A stretch of 64,000 nucleotides of DNA from the IMG/VR virus record IMGVR_UViG_3300037458_001303, positions 8,994-72,993 of that record; one strand, written 5' to 3'. The notes under the pieces were generated by a model, which was not told where the DNA came from, did not search any database, and saw only the letters and a program-made list of their open reading frames with translations. This document shows positions 19,045-53,566 of the stretch, in pieces (the first letter of the stretch is position 1; the number at the start of each line of letters is the position of its first letter). Made by a program: the position numbers and the translations under genes. This DNA is from a virus (taxonomy: Duplodnaviria; Caudoviricetes).

Positions 19045-19311
19045 ATGCAAAACACCAAAGCAAACCGTCGGGCGCTACGGCTTCAGCGCGAAGCCGCCGA
19101 GCGCAAGGTCGTCGTGGCCTCCCGCCTCGTGGAGGCTGACATCATGGCCAAGCGGGAGCCGGCCTGGGGCAAGCTCCAGGTGGCCGTTCAAGAGCTTGAG
19201 CTGGCTCAGGGCTCGCTCCGCACCTCCTATGTTGCGGGGCCCGAGGTCAATGCCCTGATGCTGCGTGCGGCAGCGTTGAAGCTGCCGGGCGTTCCGATCT
19301 TGGGGGTATGA
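19045..19311 (+). CDS. Hypothetical protein
   Basis: 88-aa ORF in the operon. Confidence 0.55.
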   Translation: MQNTKANRRALRLQREAAERKVVVASRLVEADIMAKREPAWGKLQVAVQELELAQGSLRTSYVAGPEVNALMLRAAALKLPGVPILGV

Positions 19312-19312
19312 C

Positions 19313-19528
19313 ATGGCTAGCCGCTGGGTCAAAAGAGTCGATGCGCGCCAAGCCCCAAGAGTGTCGAAATTCTTGGCAATCGCCTCGTCAGCGGCGCTCT
19401 TTCTGTTGTGGCTGTTGTGGTGCTCTGTTGTGATATTCCTGTGGGTGGCCCTACAGGGTGCCGCGGCCGTCGGGTGTTGTTACCGTGTCGCCCGACGGCT
19501 GCGGCCAACCAGTGTCTTAATGCCATGA
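19313..19528 (+). CDS. Small membrane protein
   Basis: Long hydrophobic stretch. Confidence 0.45.
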   Translation: MASRWVKRVDARQAPRVSKFLAIASSAALFLLWLLWCSVVIFLWVALQGAAAVGCCYRVARRLRPTSVLMP

Positions 19529-19902
19529 ACCGGCTGCGATGTTACTTCGATCAGGTCTTGTGCGCCTTGCTGGCGCCCGTGCTTCGCCTCGTTGAGCTGG
19601 AAGCTCGCGCTTCCAAACGCCGCGACGACGAGCTTTTCGACAAGCTCTCGAAACTCGAAACGACCATCCGCGAACGGTGCGACGCCTTGGATGCGGGCGT
19701 GCCGGCCGCGGTGCTCGGTCAGTATGGGACGGACGAGGCTGCCAGCATTGCCCGGGAGAAGGCCATGCTGAAGTTCCGGATGGAGCGCCAGACCACTGAA
19801 GCGCTGAAAAGAGAGCTTGCAAGAGTGCGGGAGATCCTATACGCTTTTTGTGATGAGAAGAACATGGGGCAACCTAAGGCCAACCGAAAGAGTTCACGGT
19901 AG
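19525..19902 (+). CDS. Coiled-coil hypothetical protein
   Basis: ATGA overlap with the previous gene. Confidence 0.5.
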   Translation: MNRLRCYFDQVLCALLAPVLRLVELEARASKRRDDELFDKLSKLETTIRERCDALDAGVPAAVLGQYGTDEAASIAREKAMLKFRMERQTTEALKRELARVREILYAFCDEKNMGQPKANRKSSR

Positions 19903-19943
19903 GCGGCCCGGATACGACCGGGCGGTAGAGAGGCGCTGGAAAT

Positions 19944-20126
19944 ATGAAGACGAAGAAAACGACGAAGCGGGCGGAGAAGTCAGCGTGGCTGCTGCTCGAC
20001 GGCGACCTCCCTGTTGCTGTCACGACGATGTTGGGAGTTGCGGCACTGTGGGCGAAGTCGAAGGACAGTCGGCTGTCTGTGAGGAAACCCCTGGCGCTAA
20101 CCTCTGAGGATCTTGGTGACCTGTGA
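19944..20126 (+). CDS. Small hypothetical protein coupled to TnpB
   Basis: GTGA overlap with the TnpB start. Confidence 0.5.
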   Translation: MKTKKTTKRAEKSAWLLLDGDLPVAVTTMLGVAALWAKSKDSRLSVRKPLALTSEDLGDL

Positions 20127-21604
20127 CAACGCGTGCTTTCAAATACCGGCTGCTGCTCGACGATCACCAGGAGCGCCGCTTGCTTGATGTGCAGGCGCGC
20201 CTCCGCATGCTGTGGAACCGCGCTGTGGGCCATCTCAACCACGCCCTGTGGATGATCCAGCACGGTCGTCGGTCGAGCCTCATCGCCGAATTCCGGCGGC
20301 TCCGCGGCGACGTGAAGCCGGTTGGCGCTCGTGCAGGGCAGATCAACAAGCTGGTCGCCGCCGGCCGAACCCGCGAAGAGGCTATCAAATTGCTCGATGA
20401 GAAAACAGTCAGCGAAGCTGTGTCCATTTACCGGGCGAAGAAGACCGGGCCGCGCATGATATGGGCCGCGGCACGTCGGCTCGCTGCGGCCTACGCCGAG
20501 TTGTGGCTTACCCAAGACGCGCCGAGACAATGGTTTGATGGACTGCACGCCGACGCGTATTCGGCAATGAGTCAGCGGTTCCACGATTGCCTGGAGGCGT
20601 GGAAAAAGAATTCGAAAACGCACGGGCCGCCGAAGCGCAAGAAAATGCGGAACGGCGTAGCTCTCGGGTTTAAGGCGCGGAAGTTCTCGCTCCAGCGGGA
20701 GGGAGACCGCGTGTTTGTGGACCTGAGTCGGATCGGTGGGAGCCACCTGAGTCGCTGCCGCCTCGTGCTGCATCGCGAGCTGCCTGAGCAAGCGGAAGTG
20801 CTAAACGTTCGCGTTGCCGGGTCACGCGGCATGTGGACCGTCTCGTTCGAGCTGCGCGCTCCCGATGAGGCGTTTGCCATAACCGGCGTGCAGACCGGCG
20901 GACAGGTCGGCATCGACCCCGGGCTCAAAGCTGCCCTGACGATCGTGCGCGGTGATGATACCCATGGCAAGCATCCCGAGACGGTGACCCCGGCCTCTGA
21001 GATGCCCAACGCCAACCGGGTGCTCGCACAGCAGAAGCGATTACAGCGCCATCTGTCGCGCCAACTGAAGCTCAACAACCCTGATTGCATTGGGAAAGAT
21101 GGTGCCTGGATCAAAGGCAAGCGTGCCTCGAACATCAGCCGAGGCATGATCAAGACTCAGGCTCGATTGGCTCGGTTGTCGATGCGCGTCACGGACTTTC
21201 GGACTCAGTTTTACCATCGGGTCGCGAATCGGATCCTGGCCCAGAATGATCTGGTTGCAGTGGGGTCGTTTCGCCCGACGGATATGGCCAAGAAGAATCG
21301 CACCGGCAAAGCGGCCAAGAAGGGTTTGGGAGCGGCACGTCGTGGGCGCAATCGAAAGTCGTATCAGCACGCTATCTCGACGTTTGTCGCGATGCTGAAG
21401 GACAAGGCCCGACGCTATAACGTTGAGCGGAAGGTGGTCGACGTTGCCGAGCAAAACACAACGCGGACGTGCCCAAATTGTCTTGAAAAAAGTGGCCCGA
21501 CATCGCTTGACATCCGCTCGTGGGTGTGCGATAAGTGTGGCGCAGGGCACAACCGGGACGGCGCAGCCGCCTGGAATATCCTGCAGAAAGCTTTGACGAC
21601 GTAA
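20123..21604 (+). CDS. tnpB: CRISPR-adjacent TnpB/Cas12-like RNA-guided nuclease (IS607/Fanzor-type rearranged RuvC)
   Basis: N-terminal RAFKYRL; RuvC-I VGIDPG (D265); NNPDC...KGK insertion; RuvC-II VAVGSF (G381); VAEQNTTRTC (E443); zinc finger CPNC...CDKC; RuvC-III HNRDGAAAWNI (D479). Confidence 0.92.
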   Translation: MTTRAFKYRLLLDDHQERRLLDVQARLRMLWNRAVGHLNHALWMIQHGRRSSLIAEFRRLRGDVKPVGARAGQINKLVAAGRTREEAIKLLDEKTVSEAVSIYRAKKTGPRMIWAAARRLAAAYAELWLTQDAPRQWFDGLHADAYSAMSQRFHDCLEAWKKNSKTHGPPKRKKMRNGVALGFKARKFSLQREGDRVFVDLSRIGGSHLSRCRLVLHRELPEQAEVLNVRVAGSRGMWTVSFELRAPDEAFAITGVQTGGQVGIDPGLKAALTIVRGDDTHGKHPETVTPASEMPNANRVLAQQKRLQRHLSRQLKLNNPDCIGKDGAWIKGKRASNISRGMIKTQARLARLSMRVTDFRTQFYHRVANRILAQNDLVAVGSFRPTDMAKKNRTGKAAKKGLGAARRGRNRKSYQHAISTFVAMLKDKARRYNVERKVVDVAEQNTTRTCPNCLEKSGPTSLDIRSWVCDKCGAGHNRDGAAAWNILQKALTT

Positions 21605-21876
21605 GTCGTCGGTGGGAGCGGAAACGCATGCCGTTCCTGGGCGAAAGCCCGAATTGCGGTGGCGCTAAGCTGGCATTAGTCGGCTTGTCATCGAAGGATC
21701 CCGAGGGACCCTTGCTGTAGTGAGAGCGTAGCGGCAGTTTGCTGTCGTGAACATAATCCGGCGCAGCCGTGTGCTGCACCTTAGCGTTGGCCAAGTGGCT
21801 GGCGTAGGACAGAGATCGCTCTGGCTTCAGCGAGCCGCCCTGTAAGCGGATCCATCGCGCGTGCGCGAAGTGCGGG
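21595..21876 (+). ncRNA. Putative omegaRNA / tracrRNA-like scaffold
   Basis: Non-coding, many hairpins: GACGAC-GTAA-GTCGTC, GGGC-GAAA-GCCC, CAGAG-ATCG-CTCTG; long-range GGCGCTAAG (21661-69) pairs with CTTAGCGTT (21780-88); ends in the 3' part of the repeat. Confidence 0.7.
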
Positions 21877-22173
21877 GACAAGAAAGAGGCTCGGTGCATT
21901 GCCAACGTCGCATCTCGCGCGCGTGCGCGAAGTGCGGCGCGAGCAACTTGTGCAGTTCCTCGGGGTCGCATCTCGCGCGCGTGCGCGAAGTGCGGCGGGC
22001 GTCGGATGAAGGTCGCATCTCGCGCGCGTGCGCGAAGTGCGGCACGAAGGGAGTGAAGCATGAGTAGTGAAAACGAAGTCGCATCTCGCGCGCGTGCGCG
22101 AAGTGCGGCTCGAGACGATCGCGCACTACACCGCGGCGCAAGTCGCATCTCGCGCGCGTGCGCGAAGTGCGGC
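21845..22173 (+). CRISPR. Mini CRISPR array: five perfect 32-nt repeats plus one 5'-degenerate repeat, five spacers
   Basis: GTCGCATCTCGCGCGCGTGCGCGAAGTGCGGC at 21907, 21965, 22012, 22078, 22142; degenerate copy 21845-21876; unique spacers of 30, 26, 15, 34 and 32 nt; orientation inferred. Confidence 0.88.
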
Positions 22174-22186
22174 GCGGAGCTAGGAT

Positions 22187-22534
22187 ATGGAATTTATGAA
22201 AAAAACGAAAATCAGAGAGATGGGACGGGATTTCACGGTGGGTAAACCTCCGATGTTTTCGCCGTTGGAACGTATGTATCGCAAGGTGCGCGCTGCCACG
22301 ATCTGGCAGCTGAAGCGCTGGGCAAAGTCCTGGCCGGCCAAGGCGCGTCGCCTGGGTGAGATGCACGCCGCCTGGGTATCCATCCACGGGGACGACCGCT
22401 CGCCGTTCATTCGCCACCTGTTCGATCTCGCCGGCGCGATCGAGTCGATCCGCGACGAGGTGGCCCATCGCCAGACAGGCACGCCGAGAGCGTTTAACCC
22501 GGGAACCTATGAGCTCGGCCGCATTACCCAATAA
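22187..22534 (+). CDS. Hypothetical protein
   Basis: 115-aa ORF starting 13 nt after the last repeat. Confidence 0.6.
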   Translation: MEFMKKTKIREMGRDFTVGKPPMFSPLERMYRKVRAATIWQLKRWAKSWPAKARRLGEMHAAWVSIHGDDRSPFIRHLFDLAGAIESIRDEVAHRQTGTPRAFNPGTYELGRITQ

Positions 22535-22541
22535 CGGCGAA

Positions 22542-22700
22542 GTGCGCCGGTGGCTGGCCCTCTACCATAACCCCTACAACGAGGTGTATGTGGGCCGGTC
22601 TCGGCGCCTGAACTACTATCCGATTTATCTTGAGTTCGACCCGAAACGCGGATACAAACCACATCATGAAAAGCAAGCTGAAGCACGCACTGATCAGTAA
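22542..22700 (+). CDS. Small hypothetical protein
   Basis: GTG start; fills the gap before the dNMP kinase. Confidence 0.3.
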   Translation: MRRWLALYHNPYNEVYVGRSRRLNYYPIYLEFDPKRGYKPHHEKQAEARTDQ

Positions 22701-23466
22701 AGGTGTCATCGGTTTCACGGGATCGGCCTGTGCTGGCAAGGACTACCTCGCCGGCCTGTTGGGCGCCCGGACCGAGGGAATGGCCGAGCCACTTTACTGG
22801 ATGACGGACTGCCTATTCGGCCTCACGTCGGAGGATCGTGGCGTCGTTGGGCTGCGCGAGACGTGGCAGACCCTGGGGCAGTGGGGTAAGGGCACGGTCA
22901 ACGACCGCTATCCCATCACGCCGGCCCGCGGTGTCTTCTGCGAGTTTGTCCGTAGCTACTTCGAGTCGCGGGACGAGGACTACGAAGCGAAGCACGACCG
23001 CCCGCTCTGCGTTGACTGGCCCTCCTACGGGTTCCAGGAGGGAATCTGGATCGACTCCATGGTGGACCGCATCGACCACCGCCTATTGACCAAGAAGGAC
23101 CGGCTGATCGCCGTCACTGGACTGCGGTTCCCGATCGAGATCGAGGCGTTCGCCGAGAAGGGGTGGCCGGTGCTGCACGTCATGGCCAGTCCGATCACGC
23201 TTGGCCGGCGCCAAGCGACACAAAACATCACCGACGAGGCCCGGCGTGACGTGTCCGAGGGGCTGGCCCACCGTCTGAACAGTATCCTGTGGGACGCGGC
23301 TAGCCCGACTACCCCGGTGCCGGACATCCCGGATCTGCTTGAGATGAATGACATCCGGGGAGTCTGGGGGGCAGTCTGGAACGATCCTGAAGCCCCCTGC
23401 AGGAATGAAGAGTTCTTGACACCGGCGGAGCTTTTGGGTATGTTGCCGCCGATGATAAAAGACTGA
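22666..23466 (+). CDS. Deoxynucleoside monophosphate kinase-like protein
   Basis: VIGFTGSACAGKD P-loop, RETWQTLG, GIWID, VTGLRFPIE. Confidence 0.8.
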   Translation: MKSKLKHALISKGVIGFTGSACAGKDYLAGLLGARTEGMAEPLYWMTDCLFGLTSEDRGVVGLRETWQTLGQWGKGTVNDRYPITPARGVFCEFVRSYFESRDEDYEAKHDRPLCVDWPSYGFQEGIWIDSMVDRIDHRLLTKKDRLIAVTGLRFPIEIEAFAEKGWPVLHVMASPITLGRRQATQNITDEARRDVSEGLAHRLNSILWDAASPTTPVPDIPDLLEMNDIRGVWGAVWNDPEAPCRNEEFLTPAELLGMLPPMIKD

Positions 23467-23467
23467 T

Positions 23468-24109
23468 ATGTGTTTTCCAAGAGGACATTTCATGACGGCA
23501 TCGGGGCGGGCGGTGAACCCGTTCACGATGGAACCCAAGGACGTGCTACTGAGCGACATTGGCCGTGCCTTGAGCAACACGTGCCGGTGGGGCGGGCACC
23601 TGCCCCCTGGCGTTTGGATCTCGGTCGCCCAGCATTCGGTGTGGGTCAAAGAGTTGCTCGAATACATCGGGGTCGAAGACGAGAGCATCATCAGCCAGGG
23701 GCTGCTGCATGACGCGTCTGAGGCGTATGTTGGTGACATGGTCAGCCCGTTCAAAGAGCAGGTCGCGATTTACAACGAAGTCGAGCACAAGGTGCAGTCG
23801 ACCATCGCCAAGGCTTTCGGGATTCCCCACCCGTGGGACCCGATCGTCCATTGGGCGGATAAGGCCGTGATGGTGGTGCTGGAGTCGGAGCGCGCCGGCA
23901 AGAACCCGGCTGAGGAGGTCTTCAGCGGCTACCTTGAAAATGCGTTGACCGCCGAGGTTTGGCGAAAACGCTTTTACCCTGGCGGCATTATCGACTACCT
24001 GCAGGAGTTGAACACGCTGTGGACGCCCGGCGAGGCCTACGCCAATTTCATGCGGGCAGCCCGGACCCAGAAATTGATCGAGAAAGCTGACCGAAGCGGC
24101 GGTCAATGA
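23468..24109 (+). CDS. HD-domain 5'-deoxynucleotidase (YfbR-like)
   Basis: SVAQHSV, LLHDASEAYVGDMVSPFK, WAD. Confidence 0.85.
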   Translation: MCFPRGHFMTASGRAVNPFTMEPKDVLLSDIGRALSNTCRWGGHLPPGVWISVAQHSVWVKELLEYIGVEDESIISQGLLHDASEAYVGDMVSPFKEQVAIYNEVEHKVQSTIAKAFGIPHPWDPIVHWADKAVMVVLESERAGKNPAEEVFSGYLENALTAEVWRKRFYPGGIIDYLQELNTLWTPGEAYANFMRAARTQKLIEKADRSGGQ

Positions 24110-25387: not shown

Positions 25388-25456
25388 CCAGCAGCGTCGC
25401 AGTCGCAGGTCTAAGTAAGTAAAGCCATGAAGAAAAAGAAAGGCTGCAAGAAGTGA

Positions 25457-25485
25457 TTGACAGGGCCCGCTGAGTCGGGCATCCT
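25457..25485 (+). promoter_or_regulatory. Promoter TTGACA-N17-CATCCT
   Basis: Precedes the structured non-coding region. Confidence 0.55.
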
Positions 25486-25489
25486 GTCT

Positions 25490-25907
25490 CGGTTATCCGG
25501 GCCCGATGCGACCGCGTCGGGATTAAATGAGGTGTGATGCCTCGCCGGAACTAACGGGCCGCCGGGTTAGTTGCGGCCCTCCTTGGGACGAGCTCCGTTA
25601 AGCGTCCGGCGCGCGATGGGCTGAGCCGGTTGATATCCCGATCTCACGCGGGGAGCCGAAAGGACTGTAAGCCCCGAACGGGGCTCGTCCCAGGGACTGA
25701 GCCGGACAACACAAGACACCGGCCGGCGACTGGTAGCGACTGCCGTGAGGTGGTGCTAAAACTGAGCAATTACATTCGCGAACGCTGCTGAATCTATGCG
25801 ATAGACCAGACAACGGGTTCGAACAAAAAATGCTGTGGAGCCGTCCAGCATCTGCCAACCTTGCTGGACGGTTCTTCGAGCGGCCCTGAGGGGCCTTTCG
25901 GAGAACC
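25490..25907 (+). ncRNA. Unidentified large structured RNA candidate
   Basis: 17-bp stem 25581-97/25679-95; 7-bp pseudoknot 25604-10/25701-07; several hairpins; 13-bp stem 25838-50/25862-74; own promoter. Confidence 0.6.
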
Positions 25908-45400: not shown

Positions 45401-45524
45401 CTTCGTTCTCCTCTTCGTCTTCCTCGCCGACGCCGAACAGTTCCTTCGCGCCTTCGACGAATAGTTTCATCTCTTCCTCGGTCAGCCCGAGGTCTTCCAA
45501 TGTGATGTCTCGATCCGTGATCAT
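45387..45524 (-). CDS. Small acidic protein (45 aa)
   Basis: MITDRDITLEDLGLTEEEMKLF...; ATGA overlap with the giant gene; missing from the ORF track. Confidence 0.5.
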   Translation of the reverse strand: MITDRDITLEDLGLTEEEMKLFVEGAKELFGVGEEDEEENEDGTE

Positions 45525-48500
45525 TGCAGGTTCAACTCAACTTGACCTTCGAGCTCGCCCAGCCGACGGAGCTTGTTCTCCAGGTTGGCTTCCACGAGCG
45601 ACTTGAGCCCGAAGGCTTCGACTGGGGCCCTGGCGATGGACGGCGGAACGGTGAAACCCTCCGCCTGTTCTTCAGTGAGGTCGAGACCGGCCAGATCTTT
45701 CCCGGGCTCCGGCTGGATGACGAGCTCGCCCTCCGGGGTCCGACGCAGTGCCTCCATGAATTCGACGAAGCTGGCGAGCTTGGCACCGGTTTTCTCAGTC
45801 CATCCGCTTTGGTCCCACAGCTTTTTCTCTCCGAACCAAACGATAGCTTGCAGATCTGCCGGCTCCATGCCAAGATCCTTCGCAGCCTGCCGAAAACCAT
45901 CCGCAATGACGTCGTAAGCCACATCATCCACTCCCGTTTCGTTCCGCGCCAGAATGCGCCATTGCTCTTTCCCACGATTGAGCAAACGGTGCGCGATGCG
46001 CGCGGCCCACACATCAATAGTCGGCCCCCAGTCGGCGCCCGTCAAGTTTCCCGTGAATTGCTTGGTCTTTTTGCCACCCGACCCATCGTCCCAAGCATCA
46101 CCCAGCACCAAAGCAACCGAAGTGCTGTTGGCCCCGAATAGTTTCCCGTTGCTTTTTCGCGGCTTCAGGCCTTCCCGATTGATCAGCCAGGACAGGAACG
46201 ATCGCTGCAGATCGCCGCCTTCCTTCTGACTCCCGCTTTTGACGTCGTTGTAGAAGGCTGTCATGATTTCGGGGTCTTTCGCCTCGAACTTTTCCCAGCC
46301 TTCGTTGATCCGGTTGACGATGTCCTTGTAGTCGCCTTTCTTGAACCGATTGTAAGCGTCCAGCGCCATCAAGAAGTTCTCGCGGACTCCGGTTCGAGGC
46401 GAAGTCGCCGCCAGAAGCTGCGCGAACATGACCATGTCCTCGCCAAAAATGCTCTTCCCGAGCTTGGCCGCCAGCCGATACCACTTTCGGGCCAGGGCAA
46501 CCCTGGGGTTCTCCATCATCTTGCGCCCCTCTTCCGCTAGACGCTCCCCGAGGACTTTACTGACCTGCGTCCGGACTTCCATCGCGGCCTCCCGCGCGCC
46601 CAGATCTTTCGGCAGCGAGTTGGCGACTTCGTTGCCTACGACTGAGTCCGTGATCTGATACGGCAGCTTGGCATAAACCAGATTGCCCTTCTCATCCTGC
46701 TGCGGGACGTTGTTTTCATCCCGAGAGAACTGGACCGGCATTGACTCCGGGAATTGCTTCGCGGCTGCCTCGATCTCTTCCTTAGCCGCGCGTCGCTTTG
46801 CTGCGATGCTAGCGTTTTTTGGCAGGAACAACCCGCCCATGCCACGCTTCCGAAGGTTATCAAGCGAGTCGGAGAACACTTGGAACTTGTTGTCCTCCTG
46901 GCTCAGGTTGGCCCGCATGAAGTCGAGCACCTTAGGCGTCTTCGGTTTGGTGTCTACGAGCGAGACCTGGGCATTGTCGACCCAGTCCTCGTTGTCCAGG
47001 AAAATCCCCTCCACCTTGCCGCGGACGGCAGGCCACTTGCTATCGGGGATCTCGATGTGCAACCGGCCCTGGTTGGGCTCGTAACGAATCCGGACGAACC
47101 CGGCCTTGAGCGCTTTTTCGCGCTCGGCCACGTCCGGACGGTCAGTAAACTTGGTCCCGAACCGCTTGTTGTAATCAGCCGAGTTCTCGGCCAGATCGTT
47201 CTCGTGGAGACCCGACGTCACCTTCTTGACCGACCCATCCGGTAGAATCCACCCTGCGCGGTCGCCCTTCAGCCCGGCGAAGTCGAGATCTTTCTTGCGC
47301 CGTGGAGCGAACGCCGGTTGGGTCGCCGGCTGCGTCATGCGCTCAACGCCGATTGCGGCCAGATCAAGGGGCGCCTCGGCCGTTCCCTCGGGGGTCGTCC
47401 AGGGCATCGTCGGCTGCGCCTGTTCTTTCAGGATCCGGTTGACCTCGGCCTCCGGGAGAACCCGGTTGATCTTCATTGATCCGCCGATCATCCAGTCACC
47501 GGTCATGTTGGGGTTGGTCTTGTATCGGTAGTAGCCGTCCTCCGGGATCTTCGCAAGATCCGCGCGAGTCGGACTGAAAACGCCACGAGCATTAACTCCC
47601 GCCGCGTTAGCCTCAGGCTGGTAGTCCACGTCGGCAGCCAGTTCCACTTCGGCCCAGACTTCGTTAGGCCGGCGCGCCCAAACTTTGCCGTCCTTCTTGA
47701 TGCCGATGTGGGTCGCCAGAGGCAGATCCCCGGCGTGCCATCCCGGGCGGAACTTGAGCGGCCCGAGCTTCGAGCGGACTTTTCCACCTTCTGCCGAAGG
47801 GCCCGCCGTCGCGTCAAGCCATAGCCCGCGGGGCAACGGATCCGTCGCACCAACGAAAAGTGGGTATAGCTTACCGTCCCGGACTCGGAAGAGCTTGTAG
47901 GCCTTGACCGTCTTCTCGGGGGCGTCCTTGGTCCGGACCCGGTATCCGCCTCCAGCGGGATCCGACATGACGTCGCCCTGGGTCGGGAACACGTCAGCGT
48001 CGGGAAGCGCATCGGACCGTTTCCGCGGCAGGAAATTCAAGCCTTCGGGGCCCATGCCCTCCTGCGCGACGTCCTCTGACTGCAGCGACTGCATCTCCTG
48101 CGAGTTGGTCGCGTCGGCCTTCAGCTGATTGGCCCTCTCTGCAATCTCGAAAGCCTCGGTGCGGGTCACATACCGGCCCGTGCTGGTCACAAACCCGTTG
48201 TCGACATAGGTGTCCGGGAAGTGACGCAGGATATCCTGGGGACCCCAGTTGTTTTCCTTGATCGCGGTCATCAGCGCCGCGAAGTGCATCGGGCCGGTCC
48301 AGACCCGTCCGTCCAGACGAGAGCGGATGGCGGCCATCTTGATCGTCTCGACGTCAGTCCGGTCAGCGGGCAGGAACGCGGTGCGGTCCTCGTCGTAGGG
48401 ACGCAGCTTCTCGACCGTAGCGTCGTCGGCACCCTGCTCCTTCGCCCATTCGGTTACCGGCTTCTCCACGGCGGGAGGCGGCGTTGTCTCCGGGGCGGGA

Positions 48501-51500
48501 ACCGGCAGCGTTTCAGGTTCTCCCGCGGACCTCCGCATTTGCCTCATAAACCACGAGGCACCGCTCTTCGCCATATTGATCTGACCAACTGCCGGGCGCG
48601 GTCCAGGGAATTCCCGGCCACGGAAATATCGGGACCGATACCGGGGCAACGCGGCGCCTTGGGCCGGAAACGTGGGCATCCGCCCATTCACAAGAGCGTC
48701 CGCTGCGGCTCTCATCTGGGCCGGGTCGGTGAGCACGGTCTCTCCACTGCCACCCGTCGGGACGACGTCACTTGCCACCGAGTCCCAGATTGCCTGCTGG
48801 TTGTTCCGCTGCGCGAAAGCTACTGAATTGGCCCGGTGCTTCTGATTGACGACCGCGTTGACGTCGATCGATACCATCGCTTCGCCACGTGGGCCCTTGG
48901 CCTCAATCTTGAAGAGCCCCGGTTTTACCCGGTAGTTGCTCAACGCATCCGTGTAGGGCTGAAGCGCGGATCGGACTCTCTCGACCGTCAACTCATTGGC
49001 GGGCACGTTGACCGAGGCAAGCGTTACCACATCCGTCGGTTCTTGCCGGGTGACCCCGGGGTTATCCGGATCGACCTCCCGAAGACGAGCCGGGTCGAAC
49101 AATGTCCCGTCCGCGTTGAGCGTTCCACCAAATTCTTCGCCGCTTCGGATCTTGTCGATGAGCTGGACGGCGTTCTTGTGGATCATCAGCAACGAGGGGT
49201 CCAGCAAACCGATCTGGGTGCTGAATCCAGCCATGCTGCCGGAATCTTCCATCACCTCACGCGCCTCGCGGAAGAACTGGCCCTTCATCATGACCGCCAG
49301 CGCTTGGTCCATGCGCCCGGCCGCCATGTCGGCTTCGAACTGCCGATTCACCTGATCGCGGAGAGCGTTGGCAAGCGGAATGCCCATCTCCGTATCGCCG
49401 GCGAGCGAGATGCCAACCGCGTAAGCCTGCCCAGTCAGCCCGCCAGGGCCCTTGGCCAGCGCCGCAAACTGCTCGGGAGTCATCGTCGCGACGTCACGCA
49501 AGCGTTGGATCGCGTCCGCGCGCGGCAGGAACCCCGCCGTCGCCAGCGGTGTGCTGATTTCCCGGATCGGCGTTTCGCGCACCCCGATTCCTTCCGGCGG
49601 CGTGACGATGTCTTCGAGGTTAAGCGCCTCGATCGCCTCCGTCAGGTTGTCCTTGGCGTTGTAACCCTGCCGGGACAGCTCAGTCCGGATCGGGTTCATC
49701 TCCATGATGTCGAAGCGTTGGTTCCCGAGCTCCGGCACAACGAACTGTGGGCGCGGGCCGCCCACCTGAGGCACCACGCTGGGCAGCCCCCGGGCTTTCG
49801 CCTCGGCCTTGGAGAACCGAATGCCTTCCGCCGGCACCGGGGTCAGATTGTTCTCGGTGGCCAGGATCTGCGCCTCGACGTTCCCGGGGATCGTGATGCG
49901 TTCCCCGGTAACCGGGTTGACGCCAGCAGGCTGACGCTTGGTCGTGGTTGGCGGCGCGATCCCCATGAGCAGGTTCAGCATCGTCGCCGTCGTCGCCGGC
50001 AGCTGATTCGGGCTGAACCCGGGTGTCGGCTGCGGGACATACCGTTGGTAGCCTTCCGGCACTCGAATCGGCTGCCCTTGGCCCGTAAAACCATTGGCGT
50101 GGTTCTGCGAGTAGGCCGCCAGATCGCTGGCCATGGCGTTTAACCCGTCCGTCGTAAACCGGAGCCCTTCGGGTGTCTGGATATACTCCCACGCCGCGGG
50201 AATCAGGTCGGCGATCTGCCGGACACCCGGCTTGTCCGACGCCATCAGGTCGTTCAACAGGATCGTGGCGTTGCCCAGGACCTTGTCCGGGCTCAGACCG
50301 AGCACCTGGATGCGCGGGGCGCCTCCAGGCTGAGTCGAACGGAGCATGCGGAACCGGTAGGGGATCGTGTTCTTCTGGAAGATCGCCCTGGTGGACTCCT
50401 TGATGTTGGGGTCCGCGGAGAGCTGTTCCCTGTAGTAGGCCTCGGCTTGGTCGTTCCGGCGTTGCCACCGTCGCAGGGCATCCTTGCCGGCCGACGGCTT
50501 CACTGACTGATAGAAGAGCGATACCAGGGGACCGCCGCGGTCCATTCCGAGGGTCCGGATGGCCCCGGCGATGCGCCGGAGGTTCTCAACCTGGGCTTGG
50601 TCGATGTCGGGGTTCTGCTCGACGGCCTGGAGGATCTTCTCCACGTCGTTCAGGTCCCGGACGTCCCGGGCTGCCGTCCGAGCGAATTCACCGGCGCCCA
50701 TACCACCCCGGAGGTTCTCCGGCTCTTCCCCGGCAGCTACCGGGGGAGTCTGGACACCGGGCACGGTCATCGCGCGCGGCGTAATGGGCGCCGGCGGCGT
50801 TACCGTGGGGGTGACTTGGGACAATGGAGCCCCCGCGGGCGTAGGAGTTTCACCAGGAGCCGGAATCGGTGCTGGCGCGGTTGGTCCGCCGGTCGGGGGC
50901 AAAGGAGGGGGCTGCGCTGGGCCGCTAGGGGGGCTAGAAGGCGTCGGGGGTAGCGGGGGCGGTGTCGGGGCCGCCGCGGCCGCAGGAAGCGGTGGCGGGG
51001 TCGCCGCTGGCGAAGGCGCCATGGTCCCGGCGGTCTGGAGGACGCGGAAAGAAGGCTCAATCGGGAGCGTCCCGGGCACGGCAGAGGCCATTTCGGCCAC
51101 CTCGGGACGGAATCCGGGGATTACCGCCTGGAAAAAGCGTCCAACAAGCCCCGCGATAGGCTGGACGACCCCCGGAGGGAGCCCGTCAAGCCGGGATCCA
51201 CGGGATACTAGGGAAAAATGTTCCGCAGCAATCTCGCCGAGGGCCTGTTCCCGCGAGATAGACACCGGGGTCGCCCCTTCGGGGAGGTTGGCGTTGAGCA
51301 TCCGCTCGTAAAGCGACCGGAAGGCCTCAATCTTATCGGGCCCGTAAGCCTTCTCGATGTCCCGCTGCAGCTGGATTGACTGTTCCGGGGTGGTCAGAGC
51401 GTGCATGAGGTGCCCCAGCTCGTGGTGCATCCCCGTGGTGTCTTCGGACAGGTAAATCTCGTAGCTGCCGTCGGGCGCCGTCCCGGCGAAATAGCCATGG

Positions 51501-53566
51501 GCGTCCGCACCGAAACGGTTTTGGAAGGCGTCCCTGGGCATCAGCCAGATCTTGGTCTCGACGGACCGGCCCGTGTTGGGGTCCTGGACCCGCCGGTAAT
51601 GCTCTCGCATCCTGGCGATCAGTGCGGCGGCCTTTTGGCCCACCGGATTCGTTGCCATCCGCCTGACGGCGGCCTCATGCCCGGCGTTGAGGTTCTTGAT
51701 GTCAGTAGCACGCTCCCCGGTCTCAGCGTAGGGCGCTGAAGGGACCCCCTGGACGTCCGCCTGTTTCCAGGCTTGGTGCAGCCCGGTAAGTGCCGAGTCG
51801 CGTCCATACTGGAATGCCTCCGACCCCAAAGCACCGTAGGCACCCAGAGCGCCCGAAGAGATGATGCCGGCGGCCATTTCCGGGTCGTCGGCCAGAAGCG
51901 CCAACGGAACCGCACCGGCCGTGCCGTGGACAACGCCTCGGCTGCCGGTAGCAATGCGGCGTCGGATCCATTCCAGGCCGCCCTCACCCCTAGCAAACTT
52001 GGCTCCGCTCTTGGCCATCTTTTCGCCCATTGCCTTCACGCCCCGACTACCCAGCGCCAGTGCCGTGCCGATCAGAAGGCTGGCTGGATTGCCAGACATA
52101 ACGGCAGCGGTCAGACCGGTCGCCATGGCGATGCCGGCGACTTTCGATCCCATGAACTTGCCCAGCCCGGCGATTTCCTTCCCCGCTTTCTCCAGGGGTG
52201 CCGCCACGGCAGCACGACCCGCTCTGCCGACCGCCTCCACCGTGCCGCGTCCCGCGGCCGATATGGCACGTCCGATCCTCGACTTGGCCGCTTCCAACGC
52301 TGCGGCGTCCGCTGCCTGGGCGATCGTTCGACCCGTCCGGGTGTTGACCAGCTTGAAACCCTTCGCGCCGGCGCCTACGGGAATCGCATTCGAAATGTCG
52401 GTGAAGATCGAGACGTTGTCGATCTCTTCCGGATCAAGCTTGACGCCGATCTGCTGCAGCTCTTCCTCGTTCAGTCCACCGAGCGCTTCGGTGACAACGC
52501 CCTGGCCGGAGCGCGCCCGATCATACTCGTAGTAGCGGCCCATCCGGTTAATGAATTCTTCAGCCGGATCCCGCGGGTCAAGCTTCTCGATACCAGCCTG
52601 GACGAACCGCTCTGCGGGTCCCCGCAGTAGCGAATTCATAAAGCTGGCGACACGCATCCCGCGGCGGAGCGTTTCTCCGACGCCTCGCTGCGTAGCTTCA
52701 AGCGCACTGCCGCCGGTCGCGGCCGTCGCTGCCGCCTCCGCGACACCACCGACGATCGGGACTGCGTTCATGAGCAGGCCACCCGATTCAACACCGCCGA
52801 GCTCGATAGAGGCCAGCAACGTCTGAGCTGCGCGAGCTTTCTCCTCGTCCGTGCTGCCGGGGAGCGCTGCGTAAAGGTTCGCACCGAGCTGCCCCGCCCC
52901 CTTGAGAGCGGAACCGAACATTCCGGGCATGCCCGAAACGCCGGCGCGGAGGACCTGACGGATCGCCTCGGAAGTCAGGCCACGGGCGTCCTTCTCTTTC
53001 CGAATCCGGAGCATCCGGTCGAAGGTCGCTTGGTCGTAAGCTCGATTCTCGATCCAGAACTTCGCCATCTCCTTTTCGGGGACGAAGAGCGCATCGTTGA
53101 TCAGATCGTCGTCGGTCCGGTCTTCCCACTCGGCCAGCGGGGACCAGTTGGTGTCGTTGGTGACAGGAGCAGCCGCTTCAGGCTGCGCGGGAACGCCCGG
53201 TTCGTCGACAGGCTCCCAGCCGGAGGTGTCAGTGACGACCATCCCCGGTTCCGGTGTGAAGGCGGGAGGCGATTCGAGGATCGAGGGCGAAGAAAGAGTC
53301 TGAGGTGGGGCACCTACGGGCCCGTTTGATTGCGGAAGCATGGCTTCAGCACCCGCCACCTCAGAAAGGGGAGCCGCCGGTTCCGGTTTTCGAACGCCGA
53401 AAACGTTGGCGACAGAGGGATGGAGTTGGCTTTGAAACGCAGAAAGAGCGGGAGCAAAAACGGAGGCATTGCTAGCGCTCAGTCTCTTGAGCCGCTCCGA
53501 AGGGAGATCCTGCACATTCAGGGGCATAAGCTTACTATCGTGACCGAGTTGATACCCGTCAACCAA
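45521..53566 (-). CDS. Large internal virion (ejection) / polyvalent protein, 2681 aa
   Basis: Last of three ejection-like genes; Gly/Ala-rich hydrophobic segments, HHELGH motif, Pro-rich linker, KAYKLF...RPGWH module, C-terminal HhH-glycosylase-like module. Confidence 0.75.
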   Translation of the reverse strand: MVDGYQLGHDSKLMPLNVQDLPSERLKRLSASNASVFAPALSAFQSQLHPSVANVFGVRKPEPAAPLSEVAGAEAMLPQSNGPVGAPPQTLSSPSILESPPAFTPEPGMVVTDTSGWEPVDEPGVPAQPEAAAPVTNDTNWSPLAEWEDRTDDDLINDALFVPEKEMAKFWIENRAYDQATFDRMLRIRKEKDARGLTSEAIRQVLRAGVSGMPGMFGSALKGAGQLGANLYAALPGSTDEEKARAAQTLLASIELGGVESGGLLMNAVPIVGGVAEAAATAATGGSALEATQRGVGETLRRGMRVASFMNSLLRGPAERFVQAGIEKLDPRDPAEEFINRMGRYYEYDRARSGQGVVTEALGGLNEEELQQIGVKLDPEEIDNVSIFTDISNAIPVGAGAKGFKLVNTRTGRTIAQAADAAALEAAKSRIGRAISAAGRGTVEAVGRAGRAAVAAPLEKAGKEIAGLGKFMGSKVAGIAMATGLTAAVMSGNPASLLIGTALALGSRGVKAMGEKMAKSGAKFARGEGGLEWIRRRIATGSRGVVHGTAGAVPLALLADDPEMAAGIISSGALGAYGALGSEAFQYGRDSALTGLHQAWKQADVQGVPSAPYAETGERATDIKNLNAGHEAAVRRMATNPVGQKAAALIARMREHYRRVQDPNTGRSVETKIWLMPRDAFQNRFGADAHGYFAGTAPDGSYEIYLSEDTTGMHHELGHLMHALTTPEQSIQLQRDIEKAYGPDKIEAFRSLYERMLNANLPEGATPVSISREQALGEIAAEHFSLVSRGSRLDGLPPGVVQPIAGLVGRFFQAVIPGFRPEVAEMASAVPGTLPIEPSFRVLQTAGTMAPSPAATPPPLPAAAAAPTPPPLPPTPSSPPSGPAQPPPLPPTGGPTAPAPIPAPGETPTPAGAPLSQVTPTVTPPAPITPRAMTVPGVQTPPVAAGEEPENLRGGMGAGEFARTAARDVRDLNDVEKILQAVEQNPDIDQAQVENLRRIAGAIRTLGMDRGGPLVSLFYQSVKPSAGKDALRRWQRRNDQAEAYYREQLSADPNIKESTRAIFQKNTIPYRFRMLRSTQPGGAPRIQVLGLSPDKVLGNATILLNDLMASDKPGVRQIADLIPAAWEYIQTPEGLRFTTDGLNAMASDLAAYSQNHANGFTGQGQPIRVPEGYQRYVPQPTPGFSPNQLPATTATMLNLLMGIAPPTTTKRQPAGVNPVTGERITIPGNVEAQILATENNLTPVPAEGIRFSKAEAKARGLPSVVPQVGGPRPQFVVPELGNQRFDIMEMNPIRTELSRQGYNAKDNLTEAIEALNLEDIVTPPEGIGVRETPIREISTPLATAGFLPRADAIQRLRDVATMTPEQFAALAKGPGGLTGQAYAVGISLAGDTEMGIPLANALRDQVNRQFEADMAAGRMDQALAVMMKGQFFREAREVMEDSGSMAGFSTQIGLLDPSLLMIHKNAVQLIDKIRSGEEFGGTLNADGTLFDPARLREVDPDNPGVTRQEPTDVVTLASVNVPANELTVERVRSALQPYTDALSNYRVKPGLFKIEAKGPRGEAMVSIDVNAVVNQKHRANSVAFAQRNNQQAIWDSVASDVVPTGGSGETVLTDPAQMRAAADALVNGRMPTFPAQGAALPRYRSRYFRGREFPGPRPAVGQINMAKSGASWFMRQMRRSAGEPETLPVPAPETTPPPAVEKPVTEWAKEQGADDATVEKLRPYDEDRTAFLPADRTDVETIKMAAIRSRLDGRVWTGPMHFAALMTAIKENNWGPQDILRHFPDTYVDNGFVTSTGRYVTRTEAFEIAERANQLKADATNSQEMQSLQSEDVAQEGMGPEGLNFLPRKRSDALPDADVFPTQGDVMSDPAGGGYRVRTKDAPEKTVKAYKLFRVRDGKLYPLFVGATDPLPRGLWLDATAGPSAEGGKVRSKLGPLKFRPGWHAGDLPLATHIGIKKDGKVWARRPNEVWAEVELAADVDYQPEANAAGVNARGVFSPTRADLAKIPEDGYYRYKTNPNMTGDWMIGGSMKINRVLPEAEVNRILKEQAQPTMPWTTPEGTAEAPLDLAAIGVERMTQPATQPAFAPRRKKDLDFAGLKGDRAGWILPDGSVKKVTSGLHENDLAENSADYNKRFGTKFTDRPDVAEREKALKAGFVRIRYEPNQGRLHIEIPDSKWPAVRGKVEGIFLDNEDWVDNAQVSLVDTKPKTPKVLDFMRANLSQEDNKFQVFSDSLDNLRKRGMGGLFLPKNASIAAKRRAAKEEIEAAAKQFPESMPVQFSRDENNVPQQDEKGNLVYAKLPYQITDSVVGNEVANSLPKDLGAREAAMEVRTQVSKVLGERLAEEGRKMMENPRVALARKWYRLAAKLGKSIFGEDMVMFAQLLAATSPRTGVRENFLMALDAYNRFKKGDYKDIVNRINEGWEKFEAKDPEIMTAFYNDVKSGSQKEGGDLQRSFLSWLINREGLKPRKSNGKLFGANSTSVALVLGDAWDDGSGGKKTKQFTGNLTGADWGPTIDVWAARIAHRLLNRGKEQWRILARNETGVDDVAYDVIADGFRQAAKDLGMEPADLQAIVWFGEKKLWDQSGWTEKTGAKLASFVEFMEALRRTPEGELVIQPEPGKDLAGLDLTEEQAEGFTVPPSIARAPVEAFGLKSLVEANLENKLRRLGELEGQVELNLQ

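Follow-up and report, generated by a model that had tools for sequence, protein, structure and literature searches.

Several groups of compact effectors of the TnpB superfamily are known to be paired with CRISPR arrays. The TranC literature describes effectors of ~300-600 aa with 3-20 repeats of 32-38 bp and no accessory cas genes, one of which, CauTranC9, lies in a Caudoviricetes genome. In its account of V-U6 to V-U45, PMC10691335 describes array-only TnpB-derived effectors with short downstream arrays and independent TnpB origins. Cas12r, from Thermus phage Lalka27a, interferes with plasmids and phages in a RuvC-dependent manner and is guided by a CRISPR RNA (crRNA) alone, with no trans-activating crRNA (tracrRNA) (bioRxiv 10.64898/2026.04.20.719267). 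Here we analyze a cassette in a virus of the Caudoviricetes, located on a stretch of 64,000 nucleotides (the window, whose numbering is used throughout) that corresponds to bases 8994-72993 of the 72,993-bp IMG/VR virus record IMGVR_UViG_3300037458_001303, a record that CheckV rates as 100% complete. The cassette consists of a gene for a TnpB-derived effector of 493 aa (20123-21604, + strand), a non-coding region of 240 nt (21605-21844, +) and an array of six repeats that ends at 22173. We read it as a type V-like CRISPR system of the TranC/V-U class that is carried by the phage, has no adaptation genes and is probably functional. The principle, array-only TnpB-derived effectors that occur also in phages, was already published between 2023 and 2026, and the locus founds no new category.

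The first-pass annotation had read a TnpB-fold protein of 493 aa from the open reading frame (ORF) at 20123-21604, whose GTG is its first and only open start, and both profile searches and structure prediction agree. The effector matches the Pfam families Cas12f1-like_TNB (2.4e-15; 56.9 against a cut-off of 26.3), OrfB_IS605 (1.6e-6) and HTH_OrfB (1e-3), and passes the NCBIfam model guided_TnpB (NF040570; cut-off 100) with 144.3 bits, which places it in the TnpB superfamily. An AlphaFold2 model based on an 81-sequence alignment (predicted local distance difference test score, pLDDT, 94.4; predicted template-modeling score 0.86) shows the WED-REC-RuvC-zinc-finger fold of that superfamily, the zinc finger reading CPNC...CDKC. 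The top Foldseek matches are ISDra2 TnpB and ISFba1 TnpB, with template-modeling (TM) scores normalized to the target of 0.71-0.77 (E 2e-14 to 8h1j; TM 0.77 for 8iaz), followed by Cas12p, AsCas12f, Cas12m2, Fanzor2 and LaTranC (3e-11 for LaTranC). Among PDB entries the single sequence is closest to LaTranC (E 1e-10), over the C-terminal part only, and the family profile to ISDra2 TnpB (5e-29). Hidden Markov models (HMMs) of named Cas12 subtypes all stay under their cut-offs (C2c8 56.7 against 350; Cas12f2 23.5 against 450), and the PADLOC models for Cas12f and u1-u4 give generic matches only, 1e-29 at best. In the model, then, the fold is that of a slightly enlarged TnpB, with no one Cas12 subtype nearest. 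Positions 54-389 of a generic TnpB profile align to effector residues 126-489 and positions 1-35 of HTH_OrfB to residues 1-35, so that ~70 residues in the span from about aa 36 to 125 are additional and predicted to be all helical; the REC-like N-terminal insertion proposed earlier is thus confirmed.

Resemblance to TnpB raises the question whether an IS200/IS605 or IS607 element, active and made up of tnpB plus omegaRNA, has inserted into the phage. The TnpB HMM matches would fit such an element, as would the nearest ESM-Atlas clusters of the effector, which are named IS607 or mobile element. We nevertheless regard such an insertion as highly implausible. Across the complete phage record, HMMs detect none of Cas1, Cas2, Cas4, Y1 TnpA or serine recombinase, in agreement with the absence of TnpA, cas1 and cas2 noted at first, and there is no PF01797 or PF00239 match anywhere in the 73-kb record, so that TnpA of either kind is missing; tnpB is present there as a single copy. 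The start codon overlaps an upstream phage gene: the stop of a 60-aa ORF (19944-20126, +), which has no match in Pfam or PHROG, is shared with the effector GTG in the sequence GTGA, an arrangement of translational coupling. The base composition of the cassette is that of the flanking phage DNA. The family itself is rare, being a single copy in genome G001 and found in 0 of 400 other sampled genomes of the same phylum. The locus also differs from ISDra2 and ISFba1 in lacking transposon ends and in having an array instead of a single guide, and the effector is ~85 residues longer than those TnpBs, with a larger REC region and a rearranged RuvC-II motif.

The array is built on a 32-nt repeat, GTCGCATCTCGCGCGCGTGCGCGAAGTGCGGC, with five exact copies starting at 21907, 21965, 22012, 22078 and 22142; shuffled sequences are expected to yield none. 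They are preceded by a degenerate copy at the effector-proximal end (21845-21876; 25/32 identical, with the 3' 21 nt conserved), which bears out the original description of six repeats, five of them perfect, and five unique spacers. From the degenerate copy onward, all on the + strand, the order is spacer 1 (21877-21906, 30 nt), a perfect repeat (21907-21938) that forms a full-length hairpin, spacer 2 (21939-21964, 26 nt), a perfect repeat (21965-21996), spacer 3 (21997-22011, just 15 nt), a perfect repeat (22012-22043), spacer 4 (22044-22077, 34 nt), which resembles a ribosome-binding site followed by ATG, a perfect repeat (22078-22109), spacer 5 (22110-22141, 32 nt) and the last perfect repeat (22142-22173). 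All five spacers differ from one another. The repeat is absent elsewhere in the 72,993-bp phage record and its core is absent from IMG/VR, where a pattern search for similar repeat termini gave two matches, both without arrays and in the number that chance expects; ORFs that cross the array, whether overlapping or on the opposite strand, resemble no known family in any meaningful way. As RNA the phage repeat folds into a hairpin (-21.3 kcal/mol) that contains two G.U pairs and is stabler than its reverse complement, and for the repeats of the phage and six relatives the effector-gene sense is the better-folding one in 7/7 cases. This stability in the sense strand, together with the G.U pairs, argues for an RNA read in the direction of the effector gene.

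An exhaustive HMMER search returned 44 cluster representatives at E < 1e-30, with lengths of 490-680 aa and identities to the effector of 30-47%; the closest homologue, P0002, is 46% identical, and the public source labels for the family read "transposase" only. No close relative came up when IMG/VR was scanned with the single protein, and no close homologue was found in cultured phages (28% identity or less). The DNA of 13 full-length relatives came from viral contigs (L006-L008) and, through scans of genomes and metagenomes with a four-sequence alignment, from Joint Genome Institute metagenome contigs (L029-L035) and contigs of metagenome-assembled genomes (MAGs; L073-L075); the sources are Verrucomicrobiota/Chthoniobacterales for the MAGs, peat metagenomes, and the three viral contigs. 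Homologues do carry arrays: a downstream array on the same strand is present in 12 of the 13, the exception being viral contig L006. These arrays start ~330-360 nt past the RuvC end and hold 3-15 repeats of about 35-37 nt at a period of 69-73, separated by spacers of 33-40 nt. The repeat of viral relative L008 and the phage repeat have common termini (GTCGCA...GAAG.TGCGGC). Within some arrays the repeats are heterogeneous, in the central hairpin at L007:5943-6918 and in the 5' half at L075:4609-4900, and the variation looks compensatory. Housekeeping genes surround the MAG cassettes and none within 3.5 kb is a cas gene; Cas1 is encoded elsewhere in 3/3 MAGs that carry relatives.

Comparison of near-identical effectors indicates that the spacers of the bacterial arrays turn over. 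The cassettes of L029/L074 and those of L030-33 have in common only the most distal spacer (24/36 nt) and the trailer, whereas the effector-proximal spacers differ, nine in the former and two in the latter. Because the proximal spacers differ while the last spacer and the trailer are common and the effectors nearly identical, the sequences suggest polarized spacer turnover. The arrays in question are at L029:2070-2882 and L074:5289-6101 (12 repeats) and at L030:5289-5611 (5 repeats), with no cas1 or cas2 adjacent.

The relatives also bear on the possibility that the phage repeats are not CRISPR at all and instead act as regulatory or processing hairpins, or as replication-origin iterons, behind a domesticated tnpB. 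In favor of this, the repeat by itself makes a strong hairpin, its spacing is variable and an A/T-rich stretch follows the last copy. However, the same layout recurs in 12/13 relatives with regular arrays and spacer turnover, the repeat termini are common to L008, the G.U pairs point to a role as RNA in the gene sense, and the next ORF begins with the A/T-rich stretch. We think these non-CRISPR roles very improbable.

In a quick IQ-TREE phylogeny, with support from the SH-like approximate likelihood ratio test (SH-aLRT), the family forms one clade apart from distant TnpBs (support 91). The effector pairs with P0002 (100), and this pair falls in a subclade (91) with a chromosomal, array-bearing group of Verrucomicrobiota, of which the inner branching is not settled. 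A second subclade unites viral L006 and L008 (99) with L075, and a third holds viral L007, with 15 repeats. Array-bearing members are present in 3/3 subclades. Because arrays occur in all three, array association is, as judged from this tree, ancestral to the family, and the phage locus would be a derived member. The cassette had been proposed at first to be a nascent intermediate between TnpB and Cas12; nested as it is in a family with arrays in every subclade, it is not.

Between gene and array, the relatives have a conserved tracr-like scaffold of ~250 nt. RNAalifold predicts that a near-invariant segment ~85 nt after the RuvC end pairs with both ends of the repeat, making it an anti-repeat candidate, and that the same segment closes a core domain in which two covarying hairpins are enclosed by an invariant helix of 7 bp. 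A covariance model of this core detects all relatives that it was built from or that are close to it (1e-21 to 1e-39), and it also detects L006:5578-5729 (E 3e-5), so that the scaffold is kept in a 219-kb viral contig that has no array. The next gene of L006 follows directly after this scaffold. L006 could represent array loss or a single-guide state. At L008:3995-5821, L073:3393-5336 and in many proteins of the family (P0005-P0011), the called ORFs continue beyond the RuvC end for 100-130 low-complexity residues and enter the scaffold, which probably reflects artefactual read-through in the annotation, the other option being a real overlap of gene and RNA.

At the phage locus the region between gene and array has the length that was first given, 240 nt, and is crossed by overlapping ORFs without a family match. 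Structure in it had also been claimed, and there the result is weaker: its fold has a z of -2.9, with 3/200 shuffles equally good, so that it is only moderately structured, and Rfam has no family for 21605-21844.

Several observations weigh against a functional CRISPR system here. With filters off, the scaffold covariance model has no match in 21605-21844 (nor in L007), two nhmmer profiles of the relatives' scaffold have none there either, and RNAduplex finds no duplex between repeat and scaffold region, that is, no anti-repeat, beyond what shuffled repeats give. The spacers of the phage array are irregular in length (15-34 nt), against 33-40 nt in the relatives. None of them matches the phage's own genome or any of 50,697 phage records (INPHARED), and for spacers 1, 2 and 4 the first 20 nt have no exact match in IMG/VR, which was queried with the exact, repeat-proximal 20 nt of spacers 1, 2, 4 and 5. 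For spacer 5 these 20 nt match L112:3574-3593(-) at 20/20 positions and the remaining 12 nt do not; by our rough estimate chance alone would give ~0.1-0.2 exact 20-nt matches per query. Finally, the canonical RuvC-II Glu is missing from the effector, whose site is rearranged and whose nuclease activity is putative.

The first of these observations concerns the guide RNA. With neither a model match nor an anti-repeat, the "omegaRNA-like scaffold" of the first-pass annotation is not established for the phage locus. It is a real possibility that the phage locus uses a hairpin-only crRNA, by analogy with phage Cas12r.

The protospacer searches bear on the early suggestion of a nuclease directed at competing elements or at the host: across IMG/VR, phage genomes and the related MAGs they yielded the chance-level 20-nt match of spacer 5 only. 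L112 is an unrelated viral contig of 60% GC (guanine plus cytosine), and the matching site falls within its gene for a major head protein (phrog_10 7e-52; Pfam Phage_capsid). Being about what chance gives, this match is a lead and not evidence. The phage spacers have no match in the three Verrucomicrobiota MAGs with relatives, and the spacers of the relatives' arrays match neither the phage database nor the present phage.

Such negatives invite the view that the cassette is a decaying relic, inherited and eroding, in which the scaffold has been lost, the spacers have been shortened by repeat-repeat recombination and nothing works any longer. Spacer lengths that are irregular down to 15 nt, an undetectable family scaffold, a viral relative (L006) without any array and the lack of protospacers in the searches made would all be explained. 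Erosion is difficult to reconcile with an intact ORF that keeps every family-invariant residue and is modeled at a pLDDT of 94, with five repeats identical over 32 nt, and with a densely packed operon that keeps ~570 nt of non-coding DNA and a coupled start codon; moreover, a functional phage array, that of Cas12r, has an aberrant spacer of 6 nt (bioRxiv 10.64898/2026.04.20.719267). Decay is in our judgment improbable, and we continue to favor a working CRISPR system.

The remaining objection lies in the catalytic site. Gly381 (codon 21263-21265, +) aligns exactly to the position where ISDra2 TnpB and LaTranC have their catalytic RuvC-II Glu, and Glu443 (21449-21451, +) is located where the following beta strand ends, ahead of the zinc finger. 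Both residues are invariant in 23/23 family members; Asp265 (20915-20917, +) and Asp479 (21557-21559, +) are kept in 21/23, the substitutions at one or the other being in P0024 and P0027. The zinc finger (CxxC...CxxC) and the C-terminal RuvC-III motif are intact in the effector. Section 8 of PMC10691335 describes this pattern, Glu to Gly with a compensating Glu on beta-5, as RuvX-like and "RuvC-II rearranged", presumes such proteins to be active and states that some of the branches are virus-specific.

Loss of cleavage through the Glu-to-Gly change would leave a binding-only RNA-guided repressor, similar to TldR or Cas12m, whose guides silence promoters or translation starts of the host or of rivals. 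Besides Gly381 itself, this would account for the resemblance of spacer 4 to a ribosome-binding site plus ATG, for short spacers (15 and 26 nt) that are enough for binding, and for the substitutions at Asp265 or Asp479 in P0024 and P0027. The invariance of Glu443 and the near-complete conservation of Asp265 and Asp479 speak against it, as do the intact zinc finger and RuvC-III motif. TldRs are truncated in this C-terminal RuvC-III/zinc-finger part. They do resemble the present effector as domesticated, immobile TnpBs with an adjacent guide RNA that are sometimes prophage-borne and lack the canonical Glu, but the effector differs from them in keeping Asp265, Glu443, Asp479 and the zinc finger and in having a multi-spacer array in place of a single guide. 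The published rearranged class is considered active in PMC10691335. Because Asp265, Glu443 and Asp479 are conserved and the rearranged pattern is presumed active, we favor an active nuclease, predicted from residue conservation, over a dead binder, and hold a repressor to be unlikely.

If the system is functional, the most reasonable scheme is as follows. Effector gene, 240-nt region and array would be transcribed together within an operon of phage replication and nucleotide-metabolism genes. The 32-nt repeat would fold as an RNA hairpin and, after processing, form the 5' handle of the crRNA, and the guide would be the 15-20 or more nt on the 3' side of the repeat. This order, repeat handle first and guide second, is the one known from all TnpB and Cas12 systems. 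The effector would bind these crRNAs, read a motif 5' of the protospacer and cut DNA with the RuvX-like rearranged RuvC site formed by Asp265, Glu443 and Asp479; competing mobile elements in the same host are the likely targets.

Among described systems, TranC is similar in its TnpB-sized effector and downstream array and, in the relatives, in the tracr-like scaffold between gene and array; the phage copy differs in having no detectable tracr or anti-repeat. Compared with LaTranC (PDB 9jfo/9jfq), sequence similarity of the effector is limited to the C-terminal RuvC/zinc-finger part, and LaTranC has the canonical RuvC-II Glu whereas the present family has Gly plus Glu443. Likeness to V-U6 to V-U45, as described in PMC10691335, extends to the array-only association, the short downstream array and the replacement of Glu by Gly with a beta-5 Glu. 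The present family is array-bearing, whereas in the passages of PMC10691335 on RuvC-II-rearranged branches none is stated to be CRISPR-associated. Cas12r is comparable as a phage TnpB-like gene (564 aa) with a short array that includes one aberrantly short spacer, set among middle genes that serve replication and nucleotide metabolism, one of them a deoxynucleoside monophosphate (dNMP) kinase gene; it differs in belonging to another lineage, thermophile-specific according to its authors, and in its degenerate 29-bp repeats.

The genomic setting agrees with the phage operon context that was described at the outset for this adaptation-less effector and array. Same-strand (+) genes from ~12.6 to 43.7 kb include those for an RNA ligase, a helicase, exonucleases and a DNA polymerase, and directly downstream of the cassette, at 22630-24109 (+), lie a dNMP kinase-like gene and then a dNMP phosphatase (HD) gene. 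A similar neighborhood surrounds the published Cas12r cassette of Thermus phage Lalka27a. The trailer and the next gene occupy 22174-22534 (+): a 115-aa ORF with a ribosome-binding site and an ATG at 22187 begins 14 nt past the last repeat, which indicates that the array is embedded in the operon, and there is no promoter-like or + strand terminator-like site within 19300-23000. The window has a GC content of 60.5%. A comparison of a 20-kb segment of the phage with 301 Verrucomicrobiota genomes, made for host inference, gave short conserved-gene matches only. Elsewhere in the window, Rfam reports an sR17 C/D-box snoRNA match at 25423-25475 (+), inside the intergenic gap 25388-25860, with a score of 36.2 against a gathering threshold of 36; as a snoRNA it is probably spurious. 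At 45521-53566 (-) there is one ORF of 2681 aa, presumably a giant structural or ejection protein.

A further proposal, which we put forward as a tentative possibility, is that the family is an unclassified type V subtype with a RuvX-like site (Gly on beta-4, Glu on beta-5) in which the phage lineage switched from a tracr-type guide to a self-folding, crRNA-only repeat, yielding a tracr-free nuclease of 493 aa; L006 would then have taken the reverse path, to a single guide. If active, the effector would be a very compact phage-carried RNA-guided nuclease; previous work on its type of catalytic-site arrangement has dealt mainly with Fanzor and TnpB rather than with CRISPR-associated effectors. 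Should the proposed targets be true, the locus adds a natural example of phages that use mini-arrays against competitors. Within one clade there are several states: long, turning-over chromosomal arrays with a tracr-like scaffold, a phage scaffold without an array, and a phage array without a recognizable scaffold. These form a useful series for following how guide-RNA architecture changes after TnpB domestication.

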